Origin: Clostridia bacterium
GTDB lineage: Bacteria > Bacillota > Clostridia > Peptostreptococcales > JAAYPU01
NCBI GenBank assembly: GCA_028279945.1
Contig: JANQMT010000149.1
Coordinates: forward strand, 1 to 29,423
Direction: 5' to 3'
DNA: 29,423 nt
Numbering within the stretch: the first letter of the stretch is position 1; each line of letters opens with the position of its first letter. Shown here one piece after another: positions 7,746-29,423 of the stretch. The position numbers and the translations under genes are program-made. Below the pieces are notes generated by a model that had not been told where the DNA came from, searched no databases, and saw only the letters and a list, made by a program, of their open reading frames with translations.

Positions 7746-7763
<18 letters not shown>

Positions 7764-9961: not shown

Positions 9962-10708
9962 TTAAAAGCCACTAATGTCTTGTGCAAGTCCGATGACCAT
10001 CATTTCTGATACACATCCGCCTTTTGTCAATGCGCATGCCTGATAAACCATATCTGCGAAGTGTTCAGGACGAACTGCCATTTCCTCATCCCATTCAAAC
10101 TTACTGATGCCTTCGGCAGATTGGAAGTTAGTATTTGAGCCACCTGGTACAAGTAAGGTGACACTTATGCCATGAGGTCTAAGCTCTGTATATAGGCATT
10201 TTGTGAAAGCATTTACTGCTGCCTTTGCAGCCGAGTATACCGACCAGCCGGGCCATGAACGGCGGTCGCAAACACTGGAGACGTTAAGTATTTTACCGTA
10301 GCCTTGTGCTTTAAACTGTGGAGCAAAGGTTCTACAGCTCATGATGGTGCTTGTTAAGTTTAAATCAATGATCTTTTTGTTCATTTCATCGTCCATTTCT
10401 TCAATGGGAGCAACTCTTACTGCTCCTCCAGCATAGTTGAGTAGAAAATCAACCTTTCCAAAGTTGTCTATGCATGCCTTTAGAGCTGCTTCAAAGGTTT
10501 CGGGCTTTGTAGCATCGCCTTTGAAAGCAATAACCTTTGAACCATGTGCTTCGCAGTTCTTGACTGTGTCTGCCAATGCCTCTTCATTAATATCAAACAG
10601 CACCAGATTACATTGATCCAGCTTTGCAAACAACTCAGCGGTTGCTTTTGAAAAGCCTGAAGCAGCTCCCGATAAAACAGCAACCTTCCCTTTAAAAGAT
10701 TCACCCAT
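9962..10708 (-). CDS. SDR-family NAD(P)-dependent oxidoreductase
   Basis: N-terminus KGKVAVLSGAASGFSK (Rossmann fold), YxxxK present. RBS AAGGAGGG. Confidence 0.85.
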   Translation of the reverse strand: MGESFKGKVAVLSGAASGFSKATAELFAKLDQCNLVLFDINEEALADTVKNCEAHGSKVIAFKGDATKPETFEAALKACIDNFGKVDFLLNYAGGAVRVAPIEEMDDEMNKKIIDLNLTSTIMSCRTFAPQFKAQGYGKILNVSSVCDRRSWPGWSVYSAAKAAVNAFTKCLYTELRPHGISVTLLVPGGSNTNFQSAEGISKFEWDEEMAVRPEHFADMVYQACALTKGGCVSEMMVIGLAQDISGF

Positions 10709-10837
10709 GAATAACCCTCCTTACCAATTATAGTAAATAATTGATCTTTTGAGATTATACTAACATATTCCATGACAAAGGTCAACAGCTCGTTTTTTAT
10801 CTTTGACATTTTTTATGAAAAAGTTCAATTGTTGAGA

Positions 10838-10866
10838 TTGACAAATGTCATAAATTAATTTAGAAT
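10838..10866 (+). promoter_or_regulatory. Promoter (-35 TTGACA, 17 bp, -10 TAGAAT) overlapped by palindrome TGACAAATGTCA (10839-10850)
   Basis: Perfect 12-bp palindrome, one of three copies in the window. A degenerate second half-site TTGACATTTT lies at about 10802. Confidence 0.55.
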
Positions 10867-10916
10867 TTAATTGAACAAATGTTTTGAAAAATGTTAATGA
10901 AGGCGAGGTCGGTGAT

Positions 10917-11699
10917 ATGTTAGTTAATTTGAATGGTAAGGTCTGTGTTGTTACAGGTGCAGCTAGAAGTATAGGTCTGGGTATTGCAGAGAAGTATTGC
11001 GAAGACGGAGCTAAGGTAGCAATGATCGACATTAATCCTGAGGTTGTATATGAGGCGGATAGAATTTCTAATGAATATAAGGCAGATGTAAAAGGCTATG
11101 TATTAAATATTACTAATAGAGAAGAGGTACTCAAATGTTTTGATAAGATTGTTGAAGAGCTTGGTCCTATATTTGCCTTGGTTAACAATGCAGGAATTGT
11201 AGATCAACGTTCCTTTGAGGAAATCACCGAAGATATGATTAACAAACAGATGGCAGTAAATGTGAATGGAACGCTTTTCTGTACCCAAGGTGCAGTAAAA
11301 AGTATGAAGGATCAGAACGAAGGCAGAATTATAAATTTTTCATCCAAATCAGGTAAAACAGGGTCAGCCCTAATGGCCCATTATTCTGCAGCAAAGGGAG
11401 CAATTATTGCCCTTACACATGCCCTTGCATTTGAATTGGCTTCCGATAATATTCAAGTGAATTGCATCTGCCCCGGTATAACTGATGCTACGGGTGTTTG
11501 GAATCAAGTAAGTTCAGGATATACAAAAAACCTAAACTTGTCTCGAGAAGAGGTCATAAAGCAATTTACAGCAAAAATTCCAATGAAGAGACTAACAAAT
11601 ATTGAAGATATTGTTGAGATGGTTTACTTCCTTACTCTAAAGGGAGATTATATGACCGGTCAAGCATATAACATTACAGGAGGAAGGGAGGTGCACTAA
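10917..11699 (+). CDS. SDR oxidoreductase, sorbitol-6-phosphate 2-dehydrogenase (SrlD)-like
   Basis: GKVCVVTGAARSIGLG, GRIINFSSKSGKTGS...YSAAK and C-terminal TGQAYNITGG resemble SrlD. Probable start is ATG 10917 rather than TTG 10884. Confidence 0.8.
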   Translation: MLVNLNGKVCVVTGAARSIGLGIAEKYCEDGAKVAMIDINPEVVYEADRISNEYKADVKGYVLNITNREEVLKCFDKIVEELGPIFALVNNAGIVDQRSFEEITEDMINKQMAVNVNGTLFCTQGAVKSMKDQNEGRIINFSSKSGKTGSALMAHYSAAKGAIIALTHALAFELASDNIQVNCICPGITDATGVWNQVSSGYTKNLNLSREEVIKQFTAKIPMKRLTNIEDIVEMVYFLTLKGDYMTGQAYNITGGREVH

Positions 11700-12746
11700 A
11701 TGAGTCATATGATAGGGAAGTGTGTGAAATATTATGCCCCAATGGATGTTCGAATTGAGCCGTTGATGGAAATACCTCAGATTTGTGATGGAGAAGTTTT
11801 GATAAAAATCGAAGCCTGTGCCATCTGTGGAACGGATATAAAATCCTTTGTCAATGGCAATCCCAGAATCATGCCTCCAAAGGTAATGGGGCATGAGCTT
11901 TGTGGAAAGATTGTGGCAATGGGCAGTGGCGTTGATAACTATAAAATAGGTCAGAGGGTAACGATGGCTACTACCATAGGCTGCGGCAAATGCGACTACT
12001 GCAAAAGTGGAAAGACAAATCTTTGTAGAAGTGCAGAGGCAATGGGCTTTCATTACCCCGGGGCGATGGCACCTTATGTGGTTATACCGGAAAAGGCGGT
12101 AAGACAAAAACATTTGGTGGATGTGGGAGATCTGGATGTCGTTATTGCAAGTCTAAGCGAGCCCCTATCCTGTGCTATGAATAATATAAGTCGTGTACCA
12201 GATGAAGCACTGGGAAGTGTACTTGTTATTGGCCTTGGGCCACTTGGAATGCTGCATGCTGTTTCCTTAAGGGAAAAAGGAGTCAAAAACATAGTGTGCG
12301 TAGCAAGACCGGGTAAAAGAGCGGATATGGCAAAGCAATTGGGCTTTGATATAGTGCTTTCGCCTCATGAGATAGATGAAAAATATAAGGAGCTTACAAA
12401 TGGCGAAGGATTTGATTTGATTATCATAACAGCTCCCAGCAACGAGATGCAAGGGAAGGTACCAATGTATGCTAAGAAAGGAGGGTACGTATCCTATTTT
12501 GCCAGTCTCCCTGTTGGAGATGAAATGCTGACAATGAACAGTAGGATTATCCATTATAATGAATTGGTGCTTTACGGTACTTCGGATTCTACAGTACAGC
12601 ACGTGAAAGCAGCAGTTCACCTTTTAAGAAAAAATCCGGAAGCCTTCAAGCCTTTGATTACACACGTTATGCCATTTGAAGATTTTCATAAAGCTATGGA
12701 TGAGATAAAGTTGAGAAATGCCGTTAAAATAGTACTTGTTCCATGA
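11700..12746 (+). CDS. Zn-dependent medium-chain alcohol/polyol(-phosphate) dehydrogenase
   Basis: CAICGTDIK, GHE, CGKCDYCKSG structural-zinc motif, GLGPLG NAD site. The start abuts the upstream stop. Confidence 0.85.
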   Translation: MSHMIGKCVKYYAPMDVRIEPLMEIPQICDGEVLIKIEACAICGTDIKSFVNGNPRIMPPKVMGHELCGKIVAMGSGVDNYKIGQRVTMATTIGCGKCDYCKSGKTNLCRSAEAMGFHYPGAMAPYVVIPEKAVRQKHLVDVGDLDVVIASLSEPLSCAMNNISRVPDEALGSVLVIGLGPLGMLHAVSLREKGVKNIVCVARPGKRADMAKQLGFDIVLSPHEIDEKYKELTNGEGFDLIIITAPSNEMQGKVPMYAKKGGYVSYFASLPVGDEMLTMNSRIIHYNELVLYGTSDSTVQHVKAAVHLLRKNPEAFKPLITHVMPFEDFHKAMDEIKLRNAVKIVLVP

Positions 12747-12941
12747 TACTATGGGTAGTGTAAAGTAAACTATAAATTACTGGCGACTGACGCCACCTTT
12801 GACAGTATAGAAAAACAATGCTCTGTAGTTTTTACCGATAGCGAAGAACTCAAGAACAGGTAGAGAAATCGACTTCAGACTATAGCACTTTAACATTGTT
12901 TTTCTGTACCATCAAGAGTAAATACGAGGGGGAATAAGTAA

Positions 12942-14003
12942 ATGAAACTTGTAGGTATAGGTGATTTGTTCATACCAAAGGAATACATTGAGAAGGGCTT
13001 TCAATCCTATTGGGAAATGAATGTTGAGGTTGAAACCGTTGAATGGATGCTTGCAGATTTTAATGAGCTTCAAAAAATTAATTTAATGGTGGAAAAAGGA
13101 GGCTGTGAGGCTTATGAGCCGCCTCAATATATTTTCGATGCCTGTGAGGATGCAGATATTATTATCACCCAGTTTTGCACCATTACAAAAAAATTGATGG
13201 ATCATTGCAAACACCTAAAGATCATCGGCGTTTTAAGAGCAGGTATAGAAAATGTTAATCTTGCATATGCAAGTGAGAAAAATATACTCGTCTACCATAC
13301 ACCGGGGAGAAATGCAGATGCAGTTGCTGATTTTACGATAGGTTTATTGCTTTCAGAATGCAGAAATATTGCCAGAGGCCATATGGGATTGAAAAATGGA
13401 AAATGGATTAGAGAATATCCCAATTCCTTTTATATTCCGGATCTTCCAGGGAAAACGGTGGGTATCGTAGGCCTTGGAGAGATAGGTCAAAAGGTTGCCA
13501 AGCGGCTTGTTGGCTTTGATGTAAAGCTATTGGGCTATGATCCCTATGTTTCAAATCCTCTCTATGGAATAAAGATGTGTTCTCTTGAAGAACTGATGGC
13601 AAAATCGGATTTTGTTACTGTTCACGTCAGACATACATCGGATACCGAGAATCTGATAAATCGAAAGTTAATCTCTAGAATGAAACCTACCGCCTATCTT
13701 ATCAATACTTCACGATCGGTCATAGTTGATGAAGATGCTCTTTTTGAAGCTTTAAGAGACAAAAAAATAGCAGGTGCCGGCTTAGATGTATTTAATGTTG
13801 AGCCGCCCACCAAAGATTATCCCATTGTTGCAATTGATAATGCAACCGTGACACCTCATATGGCAGGGGGCTCCAAGGATGCGTTTTTGAATTCACCTAA
13901 GAAGCTGGCGGAAGGGCTAAAGGGTTATTGGAGCAAAGATGAGTCAAGGTATCTGGTAAACAAGGGCTTGCTTGGAAAAATGACGGCTACAACGAAAAGA
14001 TAA
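12942..14003 (+). CDS. D-isomer-specific 2-hydroxyacid dehydrogenase family protein
   Basis: GIVGLGEIGQKVAKRL NAD-binding motif and a catalytic His region. RBS GAGGGGGA. Confidence 0.8.
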   Translation: MKLVGIGDLFIPKEYIEKGFQSYWEMNVEVETVEWMLADFNELQKINLMVEKGGCEAYEPPQYIFDACEDADIIITQFCTITKKLMDHCKHLKIIGVLRAGIENVNLAYASEKNILVYHTPGRNADAVADFTIGLLLSECRNIARGHMGLKNGKWIREYPNSFYIPDLPGKTVGIVGLGEIGQKVAKRLVGFDVKLLGYDPYVSNPLYGIKMCSLEELMAKSDFVTVHVRHTSDTENLINRKLISRMKPTAYLINTSRSVIVDEDALFEALRDKKIAGAGLDVFNVEPPTKDYPIVAIDNATVTPHMAGGSKDAFLNSPKKLAEGLKGYWSKDESRYLVNKGLLGKMTATTKR

Positions 14004-14019
14004 TTGGAGGTAAGGGGCT

Positions 14020-14316
14020 ATGTATGCAGCAAAAATTATAGGTACAGTAGTATGTACCCGAAAGGATGAAAAATTAAGTGGCAGGACGTTACAGGTGGTA
14101 CAGCCCGTTAGTCTCTTGACACTGGAATATGAAGGTAAACCTTCTGTAGCCATTGATTCCGTCGGGGCAGGAATGAATGAAATCGTTCTGGTTGTAGGAG
14201 GAAGTTCTGCAAGGCAGACAACAGTTACATCCAATACACCTGTGGATGCCACAATCATGGCCATTGTAGACCTGATTGATATAGATGGCCAAAAGGTATT
14301 CGATAAAGGTCAATAA
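14020..14316 (+). CDS. BMC vertex (pentamer, BMC-P) protein, EutN/PduN/CcmL family, copy 1
   Basis: MYAAKIIGTVVCTRKDEKL start is typical of EutN/CcmL. RBS GGAGGTAAGGGG. Confidence 0.85.
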   Translation: MYAAKIIGTVVCTRKDEKLSGRTLQVVQPVSLLTLEYEGKPSVAIDSVGAGMNEIVLVVGGSSARQTTVTSNTPVDATIMAIVDLIDIDGQKVFDKGQ

Positions 14317-14333
14317 TCTAAATTGTAGGGGGA

Positions 14334-14609
14334 ATGTCCATGTTTCTAGCTAAAATTATTGGAACAGTTGTTGCAACCCAAAAGGATGAATCATTGAGAA
14401 GTGTAAAGCTGCTGGTAATACAGCCCATTGATTCCTTTGGAAAAGAAGCAGGTTCTCCTGAGGTAGCTGTGGACACCATTGGCGCAGGCTATGGAGAAAT
14501 CGTATTTTGTGCAAAAAGCAAGGAAGGGGCTATGCCCTTACCTGACCCTAATGCGCCGGTGGATGCAGGAATTATTGGAATTGTTGATTGCATCTATAAT
14601 AATCGTTAA
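14334..14609 (+). CDS. BMC-P vertex protein, copy 2
   Basis: LAKIIGTVVATQKDESL, paralog of the previous gene. Confidence 0.85.
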   Translation: MSMFLAKIIGTVVATQKDESLRSVKLLVIQPIDSFGKEAGSPEVAVDTIGAGYGEIVFCAKSKEGAMPLPDPNAPVDAGIIGIVDCIYNNR

Positions 14610-14622
14610 AGGATGATTTGCC

Positions 14623-14919
14623 ATGATATTTGCTCGAGTAGTTGGAAATATGGTTGCAACCCAAAAAAATGAAAATCTGAGAGGTTCAAAATTAATGATT
14701 CTTCAACCTTTGGACACAAAAGGGAAAAGTGTCGGAAAACAGATCATAGCAGTGGACGCAGTAGGAGCGGGAATAGGAGATATAGTCATCGCCATTGCTG
14801 AAGGGGGTTCGGCAAGGCAGGTGTATAAGGCAAAACCCATGGCACCCATTGATACAATTATTGCGGGGATTGTTGACATCATTGAGACAGAAGATGGAAG
14901 CATAAGCTTATATGATTAA
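14623..14919 (+). CDS. BMC-P vertex protein, copy 3
   Basis: IFARVVGNMVATQKNENLRGSKL, a third tandem paralog. Confidence 0.85.
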   Translation: MIFARVVGNMVATQKNENLRGSKLMILQPLDTKGKSVGKQIIAVDAVGAGIGDIVIAIAEGGSARQVYKAKPMAPIDTIIAGIVDIIETEDGSISLYD

Positions 14920-14933
14920 AATGAGGTGAAAAA

Positions 14934-15794
14934 ATGGAAATGAATAAGTTGATTGAGGCCATTACCCAAGAGGTATTAAAAGAACTGGGTGAAGACGACC
15001 TTTTTAAAGTCGGCGGTATCTCCATCTCAAAGGAGGTGCTACCCAACGGTGTTGATATAAACAATCTGGCGAAGACAGTAGACCACACTGTTTTAAAGCC
15101 AGACACGACTAGGAACACTATAGAAAAATTTTGCAAAGAAGCAGCGGAATGGAGGTTTGCATCCGTCTGTGTGAATCCAACCCATGTAAAGCTGGCTGCA
15201 AGCCTTTTAAAGGAGACTGATGTAAAGGTATGCACCGTAATAGGTTTTCCTTTGGGAGCTAACACACCCTTTGTGAAAGCAATGGAAGCAAGGGATGCAA
15301 TAGCCAATGGTGCACAGGAGGTTGATATGGTGATTAACATAGGCGCCTTGAAGGATGGTGAATATGATCTTGTTTCAAAGGACATAAAGGCTGTCGTGGA
15401 TGCAGCGGCCGGTCAGGCGCTGGTAAAAGTGATTATCGAGACCTGCCTGTTGACAGAGCAAGAGAAGATAAAAGCCAGTTTATTGGCTAAAAATGCAGGA
15501 GCAGATTTTGTAAAGACTTCTACCGGAATGAGCACCGGAGGTGCTACGGTGGAAGATATCGCTCTTATGAGAAAAACAGTAGGCCCCCAAATGGGTGTTA
15601 AAGCTTCCACAGGAGTAAATAATCGTGAAATCGCACTGAACCTGATAAGAGCAGGAGCGACAAGGCTGGGTACTAGCAAGGGTATCATCATTCAAACCGG
15701 ACAAAGCCCTGAACAACCAAGCTGTGTAAACTGCGGCAACTGCAAATCAGGCTGTCCTACAGGAAATGCACATGTTGTGAAAGACAACTATTAA
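14934..15794 (+). CDS. deoC: Deoxyribose-phosphate aldolase (DERA) with N-terminal amphipathic helix and C-terminal CxxCxxCxxxCP tail
   Basis: [10 protein letters not shown] and MGVKASTG (the two catalytic Lys regions), TVIGFPLG. N-terminal [15 protein letters not shown]-terminal [12 protein letters not shown]. Confidence 0.85.
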
Positions 15795-15798
15795 AATA

Positions 15799-17292
15799 AT
15801 GTCAGCTGAAATAGGGGATGTGAATAATATGGTTGTCAATGAAATTGATCCGGTGAAAAGGTCCGTAAGAGAAGCCAATAAACTGATGGATGAAGCTTAT
15901 GAAGCTCAGAAACTGATAGCTGACTATGACCAGCAGAGAATCGATAGAATTGTTGCGGCAATGGTCCATGCAGGCTATGAGAATGTAAGGAAATTGGCTT
16001 ATATGGCCGTTGAGGAATCCAAAATAGGTGTTGCAGAAGACAAGGTGATTAAAAATGTGTTTGCAACAAAAAATATTTATGAATATATCAAGGATATGAA
16101 AACTGCTGAAATCATTAGTGAGGACAGAGAACAAGGGATAATAGAGATTGCAGCTCCTATGGGTGTCGTAGTAGGATTGATTCCCACTACTAATCCTACC
16201 TCAACCGTAATGTATAAGGCAATCATATCAATAAAATCAAGAAATGCCATCGTTTTATCCCCTCATCCAAGATCGGTGAGATGCTGTATGGAAGCTGCAA
16301 GGATTATGGAAGAGGCTGCTATTGCAGCCGGAGCGCCAAAGGGAATCATCAGATGCATGTCCATATGCTCTAAGGATGCAACCGACACACTGATGCACCA
16401 TCCAAAGGCAGCGGTCATATTGGCTACAGGCGGTAGTGCTATGGTTAAGGCAGCATACAGCTCAGGTACACCAGCATATGGAGTGGGACCGGGAAATGTT
16501 CCGGCTTTTATAGAACGGTCTGCAAATATATCTGATGCCGTCAGCAAAATATTTAAAAGCAAAACCTTCGATAATGGTACCATCTGTGCTTCGGAGCAGG
16601 CTATCGTAACAGAGGCTGTTATTGCTGAAAAAGTAAAGGCTGAGGTAATAAAAAGAGGCGGATATTTTGTTGTTGGTTCAGACATGGAAGCTCTGGACAA
16701 AACCATCATACTTCAAGATGGAGGGGTTAATCCGAAGGTAGTAGGTCAATCCCCCACAGCCATAGCTAAATTGGCAGGGATTGAAATACCTGAGGGAACA
16801 AAAATTATCTGTGTAGAGCTAAAGGGAGTAGGAAAGAAATACCCTCTTTCGGCAGAAAAGCTTTGTCCTGTATTGGCGTTCTATGTTATAGACGATTGGG
16901 AAGCTGGCTGTGAGCGGTGCATTGAACTGCTGAATTATGGTGGTCTAGGGCATACTATGGTGATACATTCACACAACGATGCAATCATAAGGGAGTTTGG
17001 ACTGAAGAAACCGGTTTTTAGAATCTTGGTAAATACGCCTTCCTCTCAAGGGGCTATAGGATATACCACCGGTCTCGCACCGGCTCTGACCCTAGGCTGC
17101 GGCACATGGGGAGGCAGTATCACCTCAGACAATGTTTCGCCCTTGCACTTGATAAACAGAAAGCGGATCGCATATCATCAACCTGCAAGTGAAGAGAAGG
17201 CAAAGTCTAAAGGTACTAGATATGTATATACATTGACTGAAATAAATAAGGCTATAGATAATTATAATAAAGGAGGCTATTGGAATGAGTGA
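15799..17292 (+). CDS. CoA-acylating aldehyde dehydrogenase (PduP/EutE family)
   Basis: [10 protein letters not shown] catalytic Cys, [23 protein letters not shown]. The alternative start ATG 15829 is possible. Confidence 0.85.
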
Positions 17293-17596
17293 AACAATAG
17301 GCATGATAGAAACAAAAGGCTTGGTAGGAGCAATAGAAGCTGCCGATGCAATGGTAAAAGCGGCAAATGTTCAATTGATGGGAAAGGAAATCGTGGGCGG
17401 TGGATTTGTAATGGTAATCGTAAAAGGAGATGTGGGAGCAGTTAAGGCTGCCACAGATGCAGGTGCTGAAGCAGCCGGAAGAGTAGGCGAACTGAAGTCC
17501 GTTCATGTGATACCACGCCCGCATAATGAGGTTGCAGTGATACTTCCCAAATACGAGACTGTTAAGGCCGGACCAAAAACAAAAGCAACGACTTAA
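17285..17596 (+). CDS. BMC hexamer shell protein (BMC-H, PduA/EutM family), copy 1
   Basis: [25 protein letters not shown]...GDVGAVKAA...HVIPRPH. Confidence 0.9.
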
Positions 17597-17637: not shown

Positions 17638-17907
17638 ATGAGTGAAGCAATTGGAATGATTGAAACCAAAGGCTTGGTTGGAGCCATAGAGGCAGCAGAT
17701 ACTATGGTTAAGGCTGCCGGTGTCAAACTAATAGGTAAGGAATGTGTTGGAAGTGCTTTGGTAACGGTTATGGTAAGAGGAGACGTAGGAGCGGTTAAAG
17801 CTGCTACCGATGCAGGTGCAGCAGCGGTACAAAGCGTTGGAGAGTTGAAATCCGTTCATGTGATTCCAAGGCCTCATGCTGAGGTAGAATCCATATTACC
17901 AAAGTAG
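17638..17907 (+). CDS. BMC-H shell protein, copy 2
   Basis: Same signature. RBS GGAGG. Confidence 0.9.
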
Positions 17908-17944: not shown

Positions 17945-18217
17945 ATGGAAAATGCATTGGGAATGATAGAGACAATCGGTGAGGTAGGAGCCATAGAAGC
18001 AGCAGACGCTATGGTAAAGGCTGCTAATGTAAAGCTTATGGGCAAAGAGAAGATAGGCAGCGGCTATGTAACAGTAATGGTAAGAGGTGATGTGGGTGCC
18101 GTTAAGGCTGCAACAGAAGCCGGTGCGGCAGCTGCGCAAAGAGTTGGGGAGCTGAAATCCGTTCATGTGATTCCAAGACCTCATAAGGATGTAGAGAGCA
18201 TATTACCTGAAAAATAA
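17945..18217 (+). CDS. BMC-H shell protein, copy 3
   Basis: Same signature. RBS GGAGGG. Confidence 0.9.
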
Positions 18218-19121: not shown

Positions 19122-19166
19122 ATATAACCTGAGATTTCCAATAATAAACACTGTGAGGTGAGCGAA

Positions 19167-21802: not shown

Positions 21803-21920
21803 ATTTAGAATTTCGTTGAAATATTTTTATATATATGGTATTAATATTACTATAATCTTGTAATTGGCTAATAATTTTGATATTTCAAGAAATAAAATGT
21901 TATGATAAGAGGAATCGAAT

Positions 21921-22883
21921 ATGGACGCAAAATTTGATATTTCACTTATGGTTAAGGTTGCACAAATGTACTATATGGATGAAATGAAGCAGGAAAAAAT
22001 TGCAAAGGAGCTTCAGATTTCCAGGTCGCTTATTTCAATGATTTTGACAGAGGCTAAGGACGTAGGTATCGTCCAAATTACAATCAAAAATCCTCAACTC
22101 AATAATGATGAGCTTTCCAGAGAGTTTGAAAGTAAGTTCAACCTCAAAAAATGCATTATTGTGCCCACGGCTGTTCAGGATCCTAATACACTGAGAAAGC
22201 TGGTGGCACAGAGAGCTGTAGATGTATTTAATCAAGAAATAAAAGAATCATCTAATGTTGGTATTTCATGGGGTAGAACCTGCTATGAGTTTATAAACCA
22301 ATTTGTAAGTGAATCAGTTTATAAGAATGTTTCTGTTGTACCATTAATAGGAGGAAGCAACCAGACGGCACATTATTTTCAATCCAATGAAATGGTACGG
22401 CGTTTTGCTGAGAAGCTTGGGGCAACCCCTCATTTTATCTATGCACCCAGCTTGAATTCATCCATTGAAGAAAAACTGCTTTTTAAAAAAAGCTCAAATA
22501 TGCAGGTGATACTGGAGAAGTGGGCTGATATGGATATCATTGTGGCGGCTGTTGGGACACTTCCTGATTTTAATTCCCATGAGCGTGAAACTTATATCGG
22601 AGAATCGGAGATATTTAGAATCCTTGAAAAAAGCGAAGCTGTGGGGGATATTTGTGCAAGGTATTTTGATAGGGATGGTCAATTTATCGAGGACAAATAC
22701 TTTGAAAGAATTCTTGGAATATCCCTTGATGAAATTAGAAGAGCGCATACAACCATTGGGTTTGCTATAGGATTAGAAAAGGTAAATGCCATACTTGGAG
22801 CATTGAAAGCCAATATTTTCAACATTTTTATTACTGATGAACAAACAGCAAAAAATGTATTGAAGGCTGAAATACAAAAATAG
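21921..22883 (+). CDS. SorC/DeoR-family sugar-phosphate-responsive transcriptional regulator (Bacillus DeoR-like)
   Basis: N-terminal HTH VKVAQMYYMDEMKQEKIAKELQISRSLISMIL, sugar-binding domain motifs GISWGRT, VVPLIGG, GDICARYFD. Clearly alignable to B. subtilis DeoR from memory. Confidence 0.85.
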   Translation: MDAKFDISLMVKVAQMYYMDEMKQEKIAKELQISRSLISMILTEAKDVGIVQITIKNPQLNNDELSREFESKFNLKKCIIVPTAVQDPNTLRKLVAQRAVDVFNQEIKESSNVGISWGRTCYEFINQFVSESVYKNVSVVPLIGGSNQTAHYFQSNEMVRRFAEKLGATPHFIYAPSLNSSIEEKLLFKKSSNMQVILEKWADMDIIVAAVGTLPDFNSHERETYIGESEIFRILEKSEAVGDICARYFDRDGQFIEDKYFERILGISLDEIRRAHTTIGFAIGLEKVNAILGALKANIFNIFITDEQTAKNVLKAEIQK

Positions 22884-22946: not shown

Positions 22947-23062
22947 GGGAGGCATGTTGCCCAGCCCATGGCTTTATCTCAGAAAAGAGCCGTGACAAAA
23001 TTTATGAAATATTCCAAACATTATATTGACATATGTTATGGATTTAGTTATAATTAAGAAAA

Positions 23063-23103: not shown

Positions 23104-24186
23104 ATGAAAAAGAGCATTTCTACCATCATGTGTTTGGCATTACTGGTTGGATTAATATCAATGGCTGGATGTGCACCCAACGAGCAGAGCGATGCAACTG
23201 ATACACCTCCAACAGCAGAAGCGGAGCCCCTGCAAATTGGTTACTTCGTATCTGCATTAAACAACGGATTCCATCAGGCCCATGCAACTTGGGCGAAGAA
23301 CTATGCTAAAGAAGAGTATGGTGCTGAGGTACAAGTATTCGATGGCAAGTCGGATGCAAATGTTATGGCACAGAACTTTGATCAAGCCGTAGCAATGGGA
23401 ATGGATATGGTATCCCTTCACATTTGGCAAGGTGAGTCTATCAAGGTAGCAGCAAAAGAAGCTATCCAGAATGGAATGGCTGTAACGACATATTTTGATA
23501 AGATACCCGACATAGCAAATCCACACATCATGCCCGGTGAAGCAGAAATCTCAGAGCAAATGGGCAAAATTGCTGCAGAGCAGTGGAAAAAAGCCCACCC
23601 AGACAAACCAATTGTATTTGTTTGTATCGGATGGCCTGAGCATGAAGGCGTTACCACTGGTCGAACAAATCCTTTCATTAAAGGCGTGCAGAGCGTAGAT
23701 CCAAATGCAAAATATTTAGGCTGTATGGATGCAAGCAAAGGTGCGGATGCTGCGTTTAAAGTCACGCAAGATTTGATTCAAGCAAATCCTGATTTAAATA
23801 TTATTTACTCTGAGGCTGCAGACTTGACAGTTGGCGTACTTCCTGCGTTACAGCAGCTTGGCAGAGGAAAAATGGATAACGGCGTGCCGCTTACTGAAAT
23901 TTTATGCAGCGTGGATTGTCCCGAAAACGAGTTGATCGCATGCTTTGATCCAAGCAGCTCGCTAAAAATGTCAATGGGTCTTCCTCCTAAGGAAACGGCT
24001 ATAGTAAGAATAGATACCATGATGAAAATAAAGAATGGTGAATTAAAACAAGAAGATGCAAGCTTAGATACAATTTATGTACCTAACAAACTAATCGGTT
24101 ATTGGACGCAAAAAGATGTAAATGAAGCTGTAGATTGGTATAATGAGCAGTTTGGAGCGAGCTTGGCGGTACCTGAATACAATTAA
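23104..24186 (+). CDS. Sugar ABC transporter substrate-binding lipoprotein (PBP1, ribose/galactose-binding type)
   Basis: Lipoprotein signal LVGLISMAGCAPNE. RBS AGGGGGA. Confidence 0.8.
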   Translation: MKKSISTIMCLALLVGLISMAGCAPNEQSDATDTPPTAEAEPLQIGYFVSALNNGFHQAHATWAKNYAKEEYGAEVQVFDGKSDANVMAQNFDQAVAMGMDMVSLHIWQGESIKVAAKEAIQNGMAVTTYFDKIPDIANPHIMPGEAEISEQMGKIAAEQWKKAHPDKPIVFVCIGWPEHEGVTTGRTNPFIKGVQSVDPNAKYLGCMDASKGADAAFKVTQDLIQANPDLNIIYSEAADLTVGVLPALQQLGRGKMDNGVPLTEILCSVDCPENELIACFDPSSSLKMSMGLPPKETAIVRIDTMMKIKNGELKQEDASLDTIYVPNKLIGYWTQKDVNEAVDWYNEQFGASLAVPEYN

Positions 24187-24313
24187 TAACATACGGTGAA
24201 ACCCAGTGTAGTTGACACAAATTATCGGGAGGGACTTCATTAAGGAATTCCTCCCGATAGAATTATACAGCATCTACCGGTTGTCAAATAGCAAAGATGG
24301 GGGAGCGGAAGTC

Positions 24314-25816
24314 ATGAACGACTATGGATTACAAATCAAAAATCTTACCAAGGTTTTTCCGGGAGTACGTGCAATTGACGATGTAAGCTTTAATATACAC
24401 AGAAATACCGTTCATTGTCTGGTTGGCGAAAATGGTGCAGGGAAATCCACCTTAATAAAGATACTTACCGGTGCCTATGCCAGAACAAGCGGGACTATTC
24501 TTCTGAATGGGCAGGAATACGTTGCTCATAACCCGAAAGAAGCTAAGAACAAGGGGATCAGCACACTCTTTCAGGAGCTTAATGTGGTTGACCAGCTTAC
24601 GGTTAAAGAGAATCTAACCCTTGGAATAGAGGATACGACATATGGCTTTTTAAGGAAGTCTGATAAGGTAAAAAAAATGCTGGAAGTCTTAAAAGACATT
24701 GAACCCAGCATTGATCCGAAACAAAAAGTGGGAAGGCTTAGCGTAGCAAAGAAGCAAATAGTAGAAATCGCAAAAGCGGTTGCATCGGAGGCGGATATCA
24801 TTATTATGGATGAACCTACCGCTGCAATATCCGAAGGTGAAATCAAAAGACTTTTTAAAATTATAAAGGCCCTTAGAGAAAAAAATGTAACTGTGATATA
24901 TATATCACACAGATTGGATGAGATATTTGAATTAGGCGATAACGTTACGGTAATGCGTGACGGTAAACATATAGAAACAAAAAAAGTATCTGATGTTAAA
25001 GACCGTTCAGAGCTGATTAAAATGATGATAGGAAAGACGGTCATAGAGTCTTATATTCCAAAAGATCAAAAGCCGGACAACGTGCTTTTTGAGGCAAATC
25101 ACCTTTCCAATGAAAAGCTTCATGATATTTCATTTGATGTCAAAAAGGGTGAAATTGTCGGCTTCTATGGGTTGGTAGGAGCAGGGAAAACAGAGTTGGC
25201 ACGTGCCATTTATGGTGCAGATAATTATACCGGCTGCATTATATACAAGGGCAAGAAGCTTGCAGATTCCACGCATAAGGCCATAAAGGAAGGCATCGTA
25301 CTGGTCCCTGAAGAGAGAAGGACAGAAGGGGTATTTACGATACTAACCATTCGGGAAAATATCCCTATCATGAATATGGGCAAAATATCAAAGGCTGGTT
25401 TTGTAAACCGTTTAAAAGAGAGAAAAGCTGCCAATGAATTTATTACAAAATTAAATATCGTAACAAATAGCATGGAAAAAGAAACAGCAAAGCTTTCAGG
25501 AGGAAATCAGCAGAAAGTGGTATTTTCTAAATGTCTATTTGCAGATGCAGATCTTCTAATCCTTGATGAACCCACACGAGGTATTGATGTAGGCGCCAAA
25601 GGTGAGATTTATAGTATTATACGTCAATTGTCAAATCAAGGCAAATCCATTATGATGTTTTCCTCTGAATTACCCGAGATAATCAATAATTGCGACAGAA
25701 TATTTTTACTATATGATGGTCGAATAAAGGCAGAAATCAATAACGGCACTGATATCAACGGTGAAATGATTATCCATATCGTAACGGGGGGGAATAGTCG
25801 TGCAAAGCTTGAATAA
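24314..25816 (+). CDS. Sugar ABC transporter ATP-binding protein with tandem ATPase domains (RbsA/MglA type)
   Basis: Two Walker A motifs (GENGAGKST, GLVGAGKTELA), LSGGNQQK signature. RBS GGGGGAGCGGAAG before ATG 24314. The track's 24212 start is an in-frame upstream extension. Confidence 0.85.
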   Translation: MNDYGLQIKNLTKVFPGVRAIDDVSFNIHRNTVHCLVGENGAGKSTLIKILTGAYARTSGTILLNGQEYVAHNPKEAKNKGISTLFQELNVVDQLTVKENLTLGIEDTTYGFLRKSDKVKKMLEVLKDIEPSIDPKQKVGRLSVAKKQIVEIAKAVASEADIIIMDEPTAAISEGEIKRLFKIIKALREKNVTVIYISHRLDEIFELGDNVTVMRDGKHIETKKVSDVKDRSELIKMMIGKTVIESYIPKDQKPDNVLFEANHLSNEKLHDISFDVKKGEIVGFYGLVGAGKTELARAIYGADNYTGCIIYKGKKLADSTHKAIKEGIVLVPEERRTEGVFTILTIRENIPIMNMGKISKAGFVNRLKERKAANEFITKLNIVTNSMEKETAKLSGGNQQKVVFSKCLFADADLLILDEPTRGIDVGAKGEIYSIIRQLSNQGKSIMMFSSELPEIINNCDRIFLLYDGRIKAEINNGTDINGEMIIHIVTGGNSRAKLE

Positions 25817-26816
25817 AAGTAATACGGCAGGTTCTAAAATTAGCAACCTAACCTTTGTTAATCTGTCAATGCTATTGGTTTTGGCAGTCATTTTTACCAT
25901 TGCTTCTTTGGTTGTTCCAAGATTCTTTGACATCAACAACATATCCAATCTGATTGCACAACAAGCAGAAATCATCATACTCAGCATCGGTGTAACCTTT
26001 TTACTGATATCGGGCTATTTTGATATGTCCGTAGGTGGCATCATATCAATGGCTGCAGTTCTTTCGGCATATTTTTGTCAGGTACAGGGTGCGGCAGCGA
26101 ATGACTTAGGCAGCGGACTTGGCTTGGATTATGGTACGGCAATATTTTTAACCTTGTTGTGTTGTATGATCATGGGAGCTCTCAACGCATTGCTGATTGT
26201 AAGGCTGAGAGTGAATTCGGTTATTGCAACACTAGGTACAATGGCGGTTTCAAGAGGCATTGCGATGATTGTTGCAAAAGGTGCCCAAAGGATAACCGGC
26301 TTGCCGGCTCACTTTAAAATAATTGGTCAATTTACCATCATAGGAACCATAAATCTGGCAGTCGTGATTATGCTTATATTGCTGCTCATCGCATTGATTA
26401 TAGAGAATAAAACGGTATTTGGCAGAAGGACTTATCTAATAGGTGCCAATCAAACAGCCGCACGTTTATCCGGTATAAAGGTCGATAAGCATGTTACCAT
26501 GCTTTATATCTTCAGCTCGTTTCTGGCGGGGATAGCGGGAATTATCATGGCTTCAAGGTTCAACGCAGGTAACTGTACATTGGGTACCGGGTATGAGTTT
26601 GATGCGCTGGTCGTCACTGTTTTGGGTGGAACCAGTATTTTCGGCGGGTTTGGCTCTGTTACTTGTGCGGTAGTGGGTGCCTTTATCATCGGTATTCTTA
26701 GTACTTCAGTTAATATGCTTGGATTTCAGCCCTCTATGCAGATGCTGGTCAAAGGGTTTGTAATCATTGCTGCGATACTGGCACTGCGTTTAGCATTAAA
26801 TAAGAGAAATGTGTAA
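25800..26816 (+). CDS. Sugar ABC transporter permease (RbsC/AraH family), GTG start
   Basis: About 9 TM helices. RBS GGGGGGGA. Overlaps the ATPase stop. Confidence 0.85.
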   Translation: MQSLNKSNTAGSKISNLTFVNLSMLLVLAVIFTIASLVVPRFFDINNISNLIAQQAEIIILSIGVTFLLISGYFDMSVGGIISMAAVLSAYFCQVQGAAANDLGSGLGLDYGTAIFLTLLCCMIMGALNALLIVRLRVNSVIATLGTMAVSRGIAMIVAKGAQRITGLPAHFKIIGQFTIIGTINLAVVIMLILLLIALIIENKTVFGRRTYLIGANQTAARLSGIKVDKHVTMLYIFSSFLAGIAGIIMASRFNAGNCTLGTGYEFDALVVTVLGGTSIFGGFGSVTCAVVGAFIIGILSTSVNMLGFQPSMQMLVKGFVIIAAILALRLALNKRNV

Positions 26817-26829
26817 GGGGGTGGAAGAT

Positions 26830-27795
26830 ATGCATATCCTCAAAAGATTTTCATGGAAAACTGCGGTTAAGAATCTATATGTCCTTAGTGTTTTATTGCT
26901 GATTATATTGATTTTCAGTTCGGTTTCCGTAAAATTTATTCAAGGTCCTAATATAGTAAATATTTTAAGGCAGTCGGTACCACTGTTACTTATAGGAACG
27001 GCAGTAACACTGTTGATGATATCAGGAAACATTGACCTTTCAGTAGGTGGAATGCTTGGTCTTTGTTCAGTCGTTTTTTCGCTGCTATTGAAGGCTAATT
27101 TGGGCTATATGCTGTCAAGTACCATCACACTGATATTGGGCATATTCCTTGGATATGTCAATGGACTTCTGGTAGTCAGGCTTCGTATCGTACCTGTTAT
27201 TGCAACGTTGGCTACAATGAGCCTCTGTATTGGACTAGGAAAGTTACTTTCCCCTGGAGGAATCGGATTGATCAAAGGGCTTCCGGAAGACATCGTGAAA
27301 TTTGCTCGCACACCTTTCTTTTTGGGTTTGCCAGTCTCTTTCTATGTAACATGTGGGGTAATCATCATTCTGATTATACTTCAAAGGAAGACCGTACTTG
27401 GAAAGTATGCGGTGGCTATAGGAGGAAACAAAACAGCGGCAGAGCTCTCAGGTATTAATGTTGTGAAGACAGTGTGGTCCCTTTATATTTTAGTTGGATT
27501 TTGCTCTGCTTTAGCAGGTATAGCAAGAACCAGCCTTTTATCTCTTGGCGACCCTGTAACAGGCGCAGGAATGGAGCTGGATGCTATGATTGCTGTTGTG
27601 TTGGGCGGAACCAGTTTTTCAGGTGGAGAAGGTTCGGTAGCCAGAACCATCGTTGGGGTTTTGATTATCATGTGTTTGACGGCAGGGATGCAGGTAATAG
27701 GCATGGAGCCATACTTCCAATCTCTTGTCAAGGGTATTGTGCTTATTTTAGCTGTTGTCACAGATATAATGGTAAAAGAAAAGATTGAAGACTAA
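26830..27795 (+). CDS. Second sugar ABC transporter permease
   Basis: Paralog of the previous gene. RBS GGGGGTGG precedes ATG 26830. The track's start at 26809 lies inside the upstream gene. Confidence 0.8.
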   Translation: MHILKRFSWKTAVKNLYVLSVLLLIILIFSSVSVKFIQGPNIVNILRQSVPLLLIGTAVTLLMISGNIDLSVGGMLGLCSVVFSLLLKANLGYMLSSTITLILGIFLGYVNGLLVVRLRIVPVIATLATMSLCIGLGKLLSPGGIGLIKGLPEDIVKFARTPFFLGLPVSFYVTCGVIIILIILQRKTVLGKYAVAIGGNKTAAELSGINVVKTVWSLYILVGFCSALAGIARTSLLSLGDPVTGAGMELDAMIAVVLGGTSFSGGEGSVARTIVGVLIIMCLTAGMQVIGMEPYFQSLVKGIVLILAVVTDIMVKEKIED

Positions 27796-27875
27796 GGCTC
27801 CGCAATAATTGGTTAATATATATTTTGTGAGAAAAATTGTATCAATAAGGGGGAATTATCATTTTAAAATTATCT

Positions 27876-28622
27876 TTGAATATAGAACCGGTACTTACCA
27901 ATATGGACTTTTATGACAGGATAAAGGTGGCCGCAGAGCTTGGATTCAGTGCAATTGAGTTTTGGGATTCAGAAATAAAGGATGTGAAAAAGCTTGGCAG
28001 AATTGCCAGTGAAAATAATGTTAAGGTAGCGATGTGTACCATAAACGGCATTTTTCAATATGTTCTTGACAATCCATATCCTGTACTGTTAAAGGCTGTC
28101 AATGAGACAATTGGTATGATGAAAGAAATGGATTGCAGCTCAATGATTATCTTTTCAGGCAATACGGAAAGCAAATCTGATTCACAAAAGAACATCATCA
28201 TTGAAAACCTAAAAAGACTTGCTGAAGTTGCAGAAAAGGAAAGCGTAACCATCAATATAGAGCCTTTAAATTCTATAGTAGAATGTAAGGGTCATTATCT
28301 CGATTCACAATATAAAGGATTTGAAATGATTAAATGTGTGAATAGCCCATTCATAAAAATGGTATATGACGTTTATCATATTCAGATTATGGAAGGAAAT
28401 ATCATAGATGCCATTCAGAAGAATATAGACTGCATCAGCCATTTCCATTCGGCGGGAGTACCTGGCAGAAACGAGCTCTTCTTAGGAGAAAACGACTATC
28501 CCAATATCATAAAAGCAGTGGAAAAAACAGGATATAACGGATATTTTGGTGTGGAATATTGGCCGGCTTATGAGGACCATATGAAGTCGCTGCAGGAAGT
28601 TCTTCAATATTTAAGATCATAA
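27876..28622 (+). CDS. Sugar-phosphate isomerase/epimerase (xylose-isomerase-like TIM barrel)
   Basis: AAELGFSAIEFW N-terminal motif and conserved His/Glu metal ligands. Start uncertain (TTG 27876 or ATG 27903). Confidence 0.7.
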   Translation: MNIEPVLTNMDFYDRIKVAAELGFSAIEFWDSEIKDVKKLGRIASENNVKVAMCTINGIFQYVLDNPYPVLLKAVNETIGMMKEMDCSSMIIFSGNTESKSDSQKNIIIENLKRLAEVAEKESVTINIEPLNSIVECKGHYLDSQYKGFEMIKCVNSPFIKMVYDVYHIQIMEGNIIDAIQKNIDCISHFHSAGVPGRNELFLGENDYPNIIKAVEKTGYNGYFGVEYWPAYEDHMKSLQEVLQYLRS

Positions 28623-28727
28623 TATAAACAGCATTAGGCAGTTTGAATTTTTGGTCAGAGGCTAAAGTGGTTAAAGAATAGCGCTTATCAACATCATGTG
28701 TCGATAAAACTGGAAGAAGGGATTCAA

Positions 28728-29423
28728 ATGGATCAAAAGGATATCGATAAAATCGTTAAAGAGGTGATTCAAGAAACACTCAAACAACAACACCATCATA
28801 CTAGCAAAGGCGATGGTTCAACAAATATGTCCACAGCTTCAAAGCGGTTGGATTTTGATGTGCAACTAGCAGCAGTAATGGAGCATTCCATGATAAGACC
28901 GGATGCCACACCTGCAATGGTAAAACAGTTTTGTGAAGAGGCTGTAAAATACAAGTTTAGAAACGTTTCGTTGTCGCCTTGTTTTGTCTCTTTGGCAGCG
29001 GAGCTGCTGAAAGGAACCGGTGTTATGGTTTCCACAGCCGTTGGTTTTCCTATGGGGATAGCATCTATTGAAACCAAGGTTTTTGAAACCCATGAAGTAA
29101 TAAAAAATGGAGCTGCAGAAATTGATCTACCTATAAATGTGGGTATGGTCAAGGCAGGGAAACTAAGGGCTGTGAAGGAAGAAATTGAGGCAGTTGTAAA
29201 AGCCTCTGAGAAGAGGGCACTTATTAAAGCAGTTGTAGATCTGGGGCTGCTTACGGAAGAAGAGAAGATAAAAGTTGCTTTGATTGCCAAACTATCCGGT
29301 GCAGACTTCCTAAAGATAGCAACTACAACAAGACCGGTAGGCGTAAATGCCGAAGACATTAAGTTTTTTAGAAACATCGTGGGTTCGGACATGGGACTGA
29401 AAGCAGATGGAGGAATCAAGGAT
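28728..29423 (+). CDS. deoC: Second deoxyribose-phosphate aldolase paralog with ~35-aa N-terminal amphipathic extension (3' end beyond window)
   Basis: Absent from the ORF track because there is no stop before the window end. RBS GAAGGGA. AVGFPMG, GADFLKIATT, LKADGGI. N-terminal DIDKIVKEVIQETLKQ followed by an H/S/G-rich linker. Confidence 0.8.
   Translation, partial: MDQKDIDKIVKEVIQETLKQQHHHTSKGDGSTNMSTASKRLDFDVQLAAVMEHSMIRPDATPAMVKQFCEEAVKYKFRNVSLSPCFVSLAAELLKGTGVMVSTAVGFPMGIASIETKVFETHEVIKNGAAEIDLPINVGMVKAGKLRAVKEEIEAVVKASEKRALIKAVVDLGLLTEEEKIKVALIAKLSGADFLKIATTTRPVGVNAEDIKFFRNIVGSDMGLKADGGIKD

Follow-up and report, generated by a model that had tools for sequence, protein, structure and literature searches.

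A DERA-Signature Microcompartment Locus from an Uncultured Clostridia Bacterium, Best Described as a Chimera of SPU and EUT2-Like Parts

What does a bacterial microcompartment (BMC) break down when its signature enzyme is deoxyribose-phosphate aldolase (DERA)? Compartments of the sugar phosphate utilization (SPU) class are among the most widespread bacterial organelles, and the sole experimental system so far consists of heterologously expressed enzymes from uncultured Chloroflexi. The locus described here bears on that question. It occupies positions 9962–29423 of a contig (JANQMT010000149.1) from a metagenome-assembled genome (MAG) of an uncultured Clostridia bacterium; the complete contig of 29,423 bp is called the window below. 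A first-pass annotation had read the region as an SPU-type locus with DERA as its signature enzyme. Profile hidden Markov model (HMM) searches of the window's open reading frames (ORFs) against Pfam and NCBIfam/TIGR, with scores set against family cutoffs, recovered every gene on its list in place and with strong support, and at the level of sequence the region is confirmed as a genuine BMC gene cluster of the DERA-signature class. The SPU class itself is already known and partly characterized; what this locus adds is an undescribed chimeric architecture, an Fe-S-like tail on the DERA, a second tagged DERA, and a cultured host.

Signature enzyme, shell, and aldehyde core

The signature enzyme, DERA1, is encoded at 14934–15794 (forward strand, as are the other locus genes unless marked) and scores 286 bits against TIGR00126, whose cutoff is 117. 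Its core (residues 45–258) is 67.6% identical to a solved DERA (PDB 5DBU, 296 bits), its Asp/Lys/Lys triad aligns with D102, K167, and K201 of the Escherichia coli enzyme, and the C-terminal Tyr is kept. The protein is laid out as an N-terminal helix (residues 2–20), a linker, the TIM barrel (45–258), a CxxCxxCxxxCP tail, and the terminal Tyr286; an AlphaFold2 (AF2) model likewise predicts the helix, a disordered linker at residues 20–32, and a barrel with pLDDT above 90. The N-terminal extension is 44 amino acids (aa) long, its upstream ATG has a Shine-Dalgarno GAGG at −11, and the helix, M-[ED]-I-N-K-L-I-E-x-I-T-x-E-V-L-K-E, is kept in 103 of 120 homologs. We predict this helix to be an encapsulation peptide (EP), since it matches the EP reported on SPU DERAs, all of which bear one at the N terminus (Dwyer et al. 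2024; PMC11585597).

The stretch that joins the barrel to the terminal Tyr holds the motif Cys264-x2-Cys267-x2-Cys270-x3-Cys274-Pro275 (codons at 15723–15758), a putative Fe-S site. Searched alone, the tail matched 13 Fer4/ferredoxin-type Pfam families with E values of 8e-4 to 0.2, all below gathering scores, as is expected of a single half-motif. Of the 103 DERA1 homologs with the N-terminal extension, 61 bear the four-cysteine (Cys4) motif, as against 0 of the 17 without it; the bearers span 56–100% identity to DERA1 and include DERAs of both the type A and the type B loci introduced below. In E. coli DERA the C-terminal tail and its Tyr259 move into the active site during catalysis. Because the tail delivers the catalytic Tyr, a predicted Fe-S cluster on the DERA1 tail could gate aldolase activity. 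A literature search returned no prior report of an Fe-S DERA, and neither "iron-sulfur" nor "Fe-S" occurs in Dwyer et al. (2024; PMC11585597).

A second DeoC-family gene, which the first-pass annotation had also recognized as a DERA, starts at 28728 and is truncated where the contig stops (29423); in a more extended assembly of the same sample (L094; comparison stretches of DNA from other assemblies are numbered L001–L094) its product, DERA2, is 269 aa long. DERA2 is 38% identical to DERA1 in an alignment that covers the N-terminal helix. Its Schiff-base lysine lies in FLKIAATTR, as against the F[VI]KTSTG motif; the triad is kept, and there is no C-terminal Tyr. The subfamily comprises about 70 homolog clusters at ≥50% identity, with the EP-like helix retained, and the ortholog in Anaerobacterium chartisolvens (L083) passes TIGR00126 (187 bits, cutoff 117). 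DERA2 thus appears to be a distinct subfamily, EP tagged by prediction. Its specificity may differ, or it may act as a packing partner, by analogy with the role proposed for the inactive ribose-5-phosphate isomerase (RPI) of SPU6 (Dwyer et al. 2024; PMC11585597). The Fe-S-like DERA tail and the second tagged DERA are both cargo features absent from the literature searched, and they could aid the engineering of aldolase nanoreactors.

The shell genes fall into two sets. BMC-P1, a vertex pentamer (14020–14316; 97 bits), BMC-P2 (14334–14609; 96 bits), and BMC-P3 (14623–14919; 96 bits) each match PF03319 with E near 1e-27 at a cutoff of 25 bits. BMC-H1 (17285–17596; 97 bits), BMC-H2 (17638–17907; 92 bits), and BMC-H3 (17945–18217; 98 bits) match PF00936, whose cutoff is 24.5; BMC-H1, a protein of 103 aa with a short C-terminal extension, is EutM-like (112 bits). 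All six thus pass the Pfam thresholds, and no ORF in the window carries the double BMC domain of a BMC-T, so that the predicted inventory of three BMC-P, three BMC-H, and no BMC-T genes stands. The BMC-P paralogs are only 39–45% identical to one another. BMC-P1 orthologs are 72–91% and BMC-P2 orthologs 70–84% identical across loci; BMC-P3, the most divergent of the triplet, is 77–86% identical to its counterparts in L003 and L004, and the third BMC-P of more distant loci matches it at just 42–45%. The triplet consists of old paralogs, each with its own orthologs in related loci. The BMC-H proteins are mutually 74–81% identical (BMC-H1 against the other two, 74–79%) and 75–88% identical to the BMC-H of EUT-type (ethanolamine utilization) loci; BMC-H3 is 85–94% identical to the BMC-H of related and EUT-type loci.

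The acylating acetaldehyde dehydrogenase (AldDH; 15799–17292) is of the EutE/AdhE type, matching PF00171 and, at 626.5 bits against a cutoff of 620, TIGR02518. Against solved structures it scores 515 bits with PDB 3K9D, which we take to be a Listeria EutE-type enzyme, about 400 with AdhE N-domains (412), and about 160 with PduP-type enzymes. It is 55% identical to EutE of an EUT2 locus from Enterococcus asini (L029), which we checked to be a real EUT2 (EutA, EutB, EutC, BMC-domain shell proteins, PduL, and EutH are all encoded), and 29–34% identical to the AldDHs of the type B loci L089 and L090, which bear N-terminal EPs. An amphipathic helix at residues ~479–492 is its putative EP; the pattern Y-[TS]-x-x-E-[IV]-x-x-A-[IV] is common to the C-terminal helices of type A and type C orthologs. 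The annotated start (15799–15831) lacks a Shine-Dalgarno sequence, and the in-frame ATG at codon 11 has AGGTGA upstream; Met11 is the more likely start, and a protein beginning there has no space for an N-terminal EP.

The phosphotransacylase PduL (18252–19121) matches PF06130 over residues 33–206 with 261 bits. It opens with an amphipathic, EP-like helix, ELIKKIIMAVLSNI, and ends in an extension of about 75 aa (residues ~206–289; 18867–19121) that contains a TPLARD module. The next gene, orf98 (19158–19454), encodes 98 aa, with a TPSAKD module at the N terminus (19158–19300) and a helical region at the C terminus; orthologs of 95–111 aa directly follow PduL in every type A and type C locus. 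The shared module, about 40 aa of the form [IV]-T-P-[LS]-A-[RK]-D-...-K-E-L-G-[VI], occurs in three settings: at the end of type A and type C PduL, at the N terminus of orf98, and at the C terminus of the eut_hyp-like orf226 of L089 (14480–15160). It may serve in assembly or in interaction. The eut_hyp family TIGR02536 matches here only in C-terminal fragments (PduL residues 199–286, 19 bits; orf98 residues 6–47, 24 bits; cutoff 152.6). Four cargo proteins, then, carry terminal amphipathic helices typical of EPs, DERA1, DERA2, and PduL at the N terminus and AldDH at the C terminus, and the helices are kept in the orthologs of PduL, DERA2, and AldDH. The proposal that DERA, AldDH, and PduL form an aldehyde-to-acyl-phosphate core is supported by the matches to TIGR00126, TIGR02518, and PF06130.

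Place among known microcompartments

To which class does such a locus belong? SPU loci were defined by DeoC together with RpiB (Axen 2014; Sutter 2021, PMC8217296), and RpiB was listed as a shared SPU enzyme (Sutter 2021; PMC8217296). The more recent treatment by Dwyer, Sutter, and Kerfeld (Commun Biol 2024; PMC11585597) takes DERA and AldDH as the common denominators and no longer treats RPI as universal: it is present in 18 of 29 SPU4 loci and missing in the other 11. At minimum, a BMC-P triplet is found in every SPU locus (Sutter 2021, PMC8217296; Dwyer et al. 2024, PMC11585597), in which members of the grey and orange clades are joined by one of a third clade (Sutter 2021; PMC8217296). The present locus encodes a DERA with the catalytic triad and a predicted N-terminal EP, an acylating AldDH, and a BMC-P triplet, and under the 2024 definition it classifies as SPU; the RpiB of the 2021 definition is absent. 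No PF02502 protein occurs among the window ORFs, a tblastn search with a PF02502-verified query was empty in L001–L082, and no RpiB is annotated in L083–L094. Neither RpiB nor triose-phosphate isomerase (TPI) was found in type A, B, or C loci, and no PF00121 ORF for the latter lies in 9962–29423 or L094. Two remarks of the first-pass annotation need revision. It had called three tandem BMC-P genes unusual, and the triplet is in fact an SPU hallmark (Sutter 2021, PMC8217296; Dwyer et al. 2024, PMC11585597); it had also regarded the class as known from comparative genomics alone, and an SPU6 DERA has since been purified and assayed in vitro, where it was active on deoxyribose 5-phosphate and formed a DERA-RPI complex (Dwyer et al. 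2024; PMC11585597).

The gene order is not peculiar to one contig. It recurs in at least seven others at 59–91% amino-acid identity and is therefore more than a chance assembly. In this arrangement, which we call type A, short-chain dehydrogenase/reductase (SDR), zinc-dependent alcohol dehydrogenase (Zn-ADH), and D-2-hydroxyacid dehydrogenase (2HADH) genes are followed by three BMC-P genes, DERA, AldDH, one to three BMC-H genes, PduL, an ORF of about 100 codons, an FGGY kinase and an SDR, and sometimes an iron-dependent alcohol dehydrogenase (Fe-ADH; found in L083, L087, L092, and L093). Its members are L003 and L004 (74–91% identity), L005 and L006 (about 62%), L083, L087, L088, and L092. Most are accompanied by a ribose-type ATP-binding cassette (ABC) importer and a second DeoC gene. 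L087 and L088 belong to one MAG lineage, and the collection searched lists the DERA of that lineage in 228 blocks. L083 comes from cultured, available A. chartisolvens: the whole module is present in the same gene order, the DERA is 82% identical, and the locus is flanked by a sugar-sensing set of binding protein, histidine kinase, and AraC response regulator. With this organism in culture, experiments on growth, induction, and electron microscopy are feasible.

Two sister architectures frame the type A loci. Type B (L089, L090) includes Rpe, extra SDRs, a GFO oxidoreductase, a class II aldolase/epimerase, PduS, and BMC-T; its DERA is 56–60% identical to DERA1 and has the same Cys tail. Type C (L091) has a PfkB kinase and a glycyl-radical enzyme (GRE) with its activase upstream, and PduS and BMC-T downstream. 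Since the type B DERA is 56–60% identical to that of the window and the AldDH only about 30%, the AldDH core appears to have been exchanged between locus types. Evolution here looks modular, with one type of EP-tagged DERA paired with two non-orthologous AldDH cores.

By their descriptions, none of the seven published SPU subtypes fits the locus, which is not a textbook SPU; the nearest is SPU4. Shared with SPU4 are a Firmicute host, a DERA with an N-terminal EP, AldDH, an EP-tagged PduL, and the BMC-P triplet (Sutter 2021, PMC8217296; Dwyer et al. 2024, PMC11585597), as well as similar basal BMC-H proteins, the lack of BMC-Tdp and of a consistent BMC-T, and an element related to eut_hyp. That element is full length with an N-terminal EP in SPU4, whereas here it is just the module of about 40 aa, fused to PduL and repeated in orf98. 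The window locus also differs in having no RpiB, no TPI (often EP tagged in SPU4), and no PduS or BMC-Ts, and in adding the SDR, Zn-ADH, 2HADH, FGGY, and SDR block, the second EP-tagged DERA, and the Cys4 tail. The AldDH marks the sharpest divergence: it belongs to the EUT2/AdhE trunk and ends in a C-terminal helix, whereas SPU4 is described with an N-terminal EP and an AldDH on the EUT1/PDU side. That placement sets it apart from the trunk described for SPU1–5 and SPU7; the AldDHs of L089 and L090 do fit the SPU4 text.

SPU6 is the sole SPU type on the EUT2/3-GRM1/2 AldDH trunk (Sutter 2021; PMC8217296). This Chloroflexi subtype resembles our locus in its DERA with N-terminal extension and triad, its AldDH with a C-terminal EP on that trunk, and its BMC-P triplet, but it has an RPI in complex with DERA, a BMC-Tdp, a single BMC-H, and no PduL, and it belongs to a different phylum. 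The EUT2 locus of L029 shares an AldDH at 55% identity, BMC-H at 75–88%, a PF06130 PduL, and the sequence from acetaldehyde to acetyl-CoA to acetyl phosphate. It differs in that EutABC, EutL, and EutH are absent from the window, DERA takes the place of the ammonia-lyase, and there are three BMC-P genes as against one. Given an EUT2-like AldDH on a trunk where SPU6 is the only SPU representative, and BMC-H proteins 75–88% identical to those of EUT-type loci, the locus is best described as a chimera in which the SPU signature, EP-tagged DERA plus BMC-P triplet, is predicted to work with an EUT2-like core of AldDH, BMC-H, and PduL. This Clostridial variant is an undescribed architecture in the SPU literature examined, and the part of the Sutter 2021 supplements that was searched for Anaerobacterium, FGGY, and related Pfam numbers gave no match. 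An assignment to EUT2x, an EUT2-like class without EutBC, was considered and rejected, because that class is restricted to Bacillales and is described with neither DERA nor a BMC-P triplet.

Two further systems offer partial parallels. The dra-nupC-pdp operon of Bacillus subtilis likewise joins a DERA to a SorC-family, DeoR-type regulator; it has no shell, AldDH, PduL, ABC importer, or FGGY kinase and relies on a nucleoside transporter and phosphorylase. The PVM/GRM5 compartments for fucose and rhamnose also phosphorylate a sugar in the cytosol and confine a toxic aldehyde, released by an aldolase, within the shell, but theirs is a class II aldolase (PF00596) that gives lactaldehyde, and shell and core are different.

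Substrate, pathway, and rival explanations

Judged from sequence, we think it probable that the locus encodes a catabolic SPU-class BMC that cleaves a 2-deoxypentose 5-phosphate and is built around a chimeric, EUT2-like core. A 2-deoxypentose 5-phosphate, most simply 2-deoxy-D-ribose 5-phosphate, would enter the shell, where DERA1 would split it into glyceraldehyde 3-phosphate, which would leave for glycolysis, and acetaldehyde, which the shell would trap. The EutE-type AldDH would convert the acetaldehyde to acetyl-CoA and NADH, and PduL would turn acetyl-CoA into acetyl phosphate, recycling CoA. Close homology speaks for this core chemistry, as does the published SPU model. With lower confidence, we suggest that the ribose-type importer brings in a free extracellular sugar, for which 2-deoxyribose is the leading candidate, that the FGGY kinase phosphorylates it, that the Bacillus-DeoR-type regulator senses the sugar phosphate, and that SDR, Zn-ADH, and 2HADH either interconvert related sugar and polyol forms or re-oxidize NADH. 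Being nearest to Bacillus DeoR, the regulator fits an effector resembling deoxyribose phosphate. Importer and kinase together point to a free extracellular sugar; they and the fixed set of dehydrogenases constrain the substrate question and argue against a simple "DNA detritus" model. An imported deoxyribose-type sugar is thus the leading feedstock, with an ordinary polyol or sugar as its main rival.

Several observations weigh against this reading. The known deoxyribokinases are PfkB-type and not FGGY enzymes, which makes the FGGY phosphorylation step a guess. Simple deoxyribose catabolism leaves four or five conserved dehydrogenases, the TIM barrel encoded beside DERA2, and DERA2 itself unexplained. 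The source organism has no NADH-recycling Fe-ADH, unlike L083, L087, L092, and L093, and no nucleoside phosphorylase or phosphopentomutase is encoded nearby. As to the architecture, some of the 11 (of 29) published SPU4 loci that have no RPI might already be of this kind.

The first-pass annotation had proposed that an imported sugar or polyol is phosphorylated and oxidized and that DERA then cleaves it in the shell to acetaldehyde and a triose phosphate. On this scheme the feedstock would be an ordinary pentitol, tetritol, hexitol, or sugar, its oxidation and phosphorylation would take place in the cytosol, and DERA1, DERA2, or both would carry out the cleavage. Several points speak for such a feedstock: by gene spacing, one transcript joins the shell genes to those for the sorbitol/xylitol-dehydrogenase-like SDR, Zn-ADH, 2HADH, FGGY kinase, and SDR2, all of which are conserved in type A; the A. 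chartisolvens locus adjoins the sugar-sensing set; Rpe, a class II aldolase/epimerase, and a GFO oxidoreductase occur in addition in type B loci; and the altered active-site motif of DERA2 makes another substrate possible. The difficulty is chemical. DERA gives acetaldehyde solely from a 2-deoxy aldose phosphate, in which C2 is a methylene, and among the genes of the window and L094 there is no dehydratase of any kind, B12-dependent, GRE, or otherwise, so that the polyol route as proposed lacks its key step. DERA1 is, moreover, 67.6% identical to a housekeeping-type DERA, and the AldDH is of the acetaldehyde type. The dehydrogenases are indeed present, but SDR and Zn-ADH resemble enzymes for free polyols, and action on polyol phosphates finds no support. 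We consider the scheme rather unlikely. That the polyol and sugar genes merely lie beside an independent DERA microcompartment operon, with no pathway in common, would account for a regulator that varies (SorC as against histidine kinase plus AraC), a kinase that varies (FGGY, a second FGGY at 38%, PfkB), a TIM barrel present in the window, L094, and L093 and not in the examined stretches of the other loci, and separate promoter-like sites ahead of regulator and importer; such a juxtaposition is improbable, for dehydrogenases and kinase are interleaved with shell and cargo genes, and their positions are kept at 59–91% identity across genera.

The aldehyde itself might be another one. Were DERA-family enzymes to cleave non-deoxy pentose phosphates into glycolaldehyde and glyceraldehyde 3-phosphate, with the compartment handling glycolaldehyde, the RpiB of classical SPU loci, the Rpe and AraD-like enzyme of type B, and a xylulokinase-like FGGY beside a DERA would all make sense, as would the remark that no pathway connects RPI to DERA (Dwyer et al. 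2024; PMC11585597). DERA1 is close to ordinary DERAs, however, the SPU6 DERA is active on deoxyribose 5-phosphate, and the AldDH passes the cutoff for acetaldehyde dehydrogenases. We know of no DERA that takes glycolaldehyde as donor, and we regard this alternative as very improbable. Least credible of all is that an EUT2 or other classical BMC has been mistyped: AldDH, BMC-H, and PduL are indeed most similar to EUT2 components, but the ORFs of the window and of L094 encode no EutA, EutB, EutC, EutL, EutH, diol dehydratase, or GRE (PF06751 and PF05985 included), nor does the locus have the EutBC, PduCDE, or GRE signature of another class. An EP-tagged DERA holds the signature position, and the BMC-P triplet stands against the single BMC-P of EUT loci.

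A more far-reaching reading, to which we would give only low credence, holds jointly that the locus represents a distinct, undescribed SPU subtype; that the DERA tail carries a [4Fe-4S]-type cluster, making the enzyme an aldolase gated by redox state or oxygen, or else an electron conduit, inside a microcompartment; that DERA2 differs in specificity; that the feedstock is an imported sugar or polyol and not DNA-derived deoxyribose phosphate; and that the GRE of L091 may dehydrate a pentitol phosphate and so supply the 2-deoxy sugar phosphate. The group attacked could be the terminal diol, with a pentitol 5-phosphate as substrate. In Brucella erythritol catabolism, EryI and EryH isomerize tetrulose and tetrose 4-phosphates. 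By analogy, the RpiB-like and TPI-like pair of classical SPU loci mirrors EryI/EryH, and the SPU "RPI," inactive on ribose 5-phosphate, might act on C4 sugar phosphates.

Two observations from other loci belong beside this discussion. In L091, 3840–7188 together with 9028–17528 encode an EP-tagged DERA, an EUT2-like AldDH, a BMC-P triplet, DERA2, a PFL-like (pyruvate formate-lyase) GRE, its activase, and PfkB; no description of a microcompartment with both GRE and DERA was found in the SPU literature examined. In L085 and L086, a DERA1 homolog at 10001–10735 is 72% identical and has neither EP nor Cys tail. It stands in a polysaccharide utilization neighborhood (PL8 lyase, GH1, GH2, SASA esterase, ROK kinases), a setting that may mean that related Firmicutes obtain DERA substrates from something other than DNA.

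Peripheral genes, operon structure, and flanks

Upstream of the shell genes, a divergent classical SDR (SDR0; 9962–10708, reverse strand; PF00106, 164 bits) has orthologs at the equivalent position in L003 and L004 that are 87–90% identical. Next comes SDR1 (10917–11699; PF00106, PF13561), a polyol-dehydrogenase-like protein whose likely start is the ATG at 10917, with a Shine-Dalgarno sequence upstream; the ORF list had placed it at a TTG at 10884. Its best solved relatives are sorbitol/L-iditol and xylitol dehydrogenases (139–156 bits), and all NCBIfam equivalogs stay below cutoff. The Zn-dependent medium-chain dehydrogenase (Zn-ADH; 11700–12746; PF08240, PF00107) is nearest to the threonine 3-dehydrogenase and IolM-like families, well below their cutoffs, and is 67–82% identical across all type A loci. 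The 2HADH (12942–14003; PF02826, 198 bits) has phosphoglycerate dehydrogenase (PGDH) and glyoxylate reductase as PDB relatives at about 160 bits; it is 65–84% identical in L003, L006, L083, L087, and L092 and absent from L004.

Beyond orf98 lies the FGGY-family sugar kinase (19468–20946; PF00370, PF02782), nearest to XylB (224 bits) and LsrK (212 bits), both below cutoff, with LsrK also its PDB match (122 bits) and orthologs 50–70% identical. SDR2 (20992–21753; PF13561, 185 bits), similar to FabG, glucose-1-dehydrogenase, and GolD-DthD, is the most conserved of the peripheral enzymes at 72–88% identity. The regulator (21921–22883), given as DeoR in the first-pass annotation, is of the Bacillus DeoR type and belongs to the SorC family (PF04198, 205 bits) and not to the DeoR family of Pfam; it scores 232 bits on NF053881, "repressor DeoR" (cutoff 420), and 107 on LsrR. 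An AI-2 (lsr) system, which the FGGY kinase, SorC regulator, ABC importer, and DeoC-family protein might suggest, was rejected on these scores (DeoR 232 as against LsrR 107; kinase 212 as against an LsrK cutoff of 528) and on both DeoC proteins being of the DERA type. The ribose-type importer (23104–27795; PF13407, PF00005, two PF02653) comprises a binding protein (23104–24186), weakly RbsB-like at 38 bits, an ATPase (24212–25816), and two permeases (25800–26816 and 26809–27795). A xylose-isomerase-like TIM barrel (27876–28622; PF01261, 105 bits) resembles 2-oxo-tetronate and hydroxypyruvate isomerases (OtnI 124 bits, Hyi 115 bits, both below cutoffs; nearest solved structures PDB 3NGF and YgbM) and is found in L093 as well. 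The solved homologs name no specific ligand for the locus, the kinase, Zn-ADH, 2HADH, and TIM barrel being far from characterized enzymes.

From 2HADH through SDR2 the intergenic gaps measure −8 to 45 nt, which argues for one operon; 2HADH ends 16 nt before BMC-P1, and the FGGY gene starts 13 nt past orf98. Promoter-like sites occur in three larger gaps, and their overall number in the region is no greater than chance: a candidate TTGACA-17-TAGAAT (10838–10866, forward strand; 11 of 12 consensus positions) in the divergent gap ahead of SDR1, a site at 21877–21906 ahead of the regulator gene, and a perfect −35/−10 consensus at 23026–23054 ahead of the importer genes. An Rfam search of the region for riboswitches and other RNA elements gave zero matches.

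In L094, DERA2 is followed by one further SDR gene and then by unrelated SLH and chemoreceptor genes, which places the true end of the locus one SDR gene past the window. The contig titled "Calditrichales bacterium" (JAJGRE010000003.1; L003/L093) carries locus proteins 74–91% identical to those of the Clostridia locus, a mismatch that points to mis-binning or recent inter-phylum transfer; beside DERA2 it encodes another FGGY kinase and another 2HADH, together with an Fe-ADH, a PF01116 aldolase, and a cupin. On the left, GC content steps from 0.31 (window 1–9900) to 0.41 (9962–29423) at the locus start. A locus richer in GC than its flank is also seen in L083, L087, and L092 and not in L004, and the step, which is suggestive only, is compatible with horizontal transfer or with compositional constraint. 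The left 9.9 kb holds a truncated MATE pump, several ORFs of no family, two WYL-domain proteins, an SPFH protein, and a CPCC protein; a screen of this low-GC part for a defense or phage origin gave just the two WYL-domain proteins. These are encoded at 6302–7763 by two adjoining, slightly overlapping WYL/WCX ORFs (PADLOC WYL, E 2.5e-16 and 5e-7) that may, among the family-less ORFs, be the regulator pair of an unrecognized accessory or defense module.

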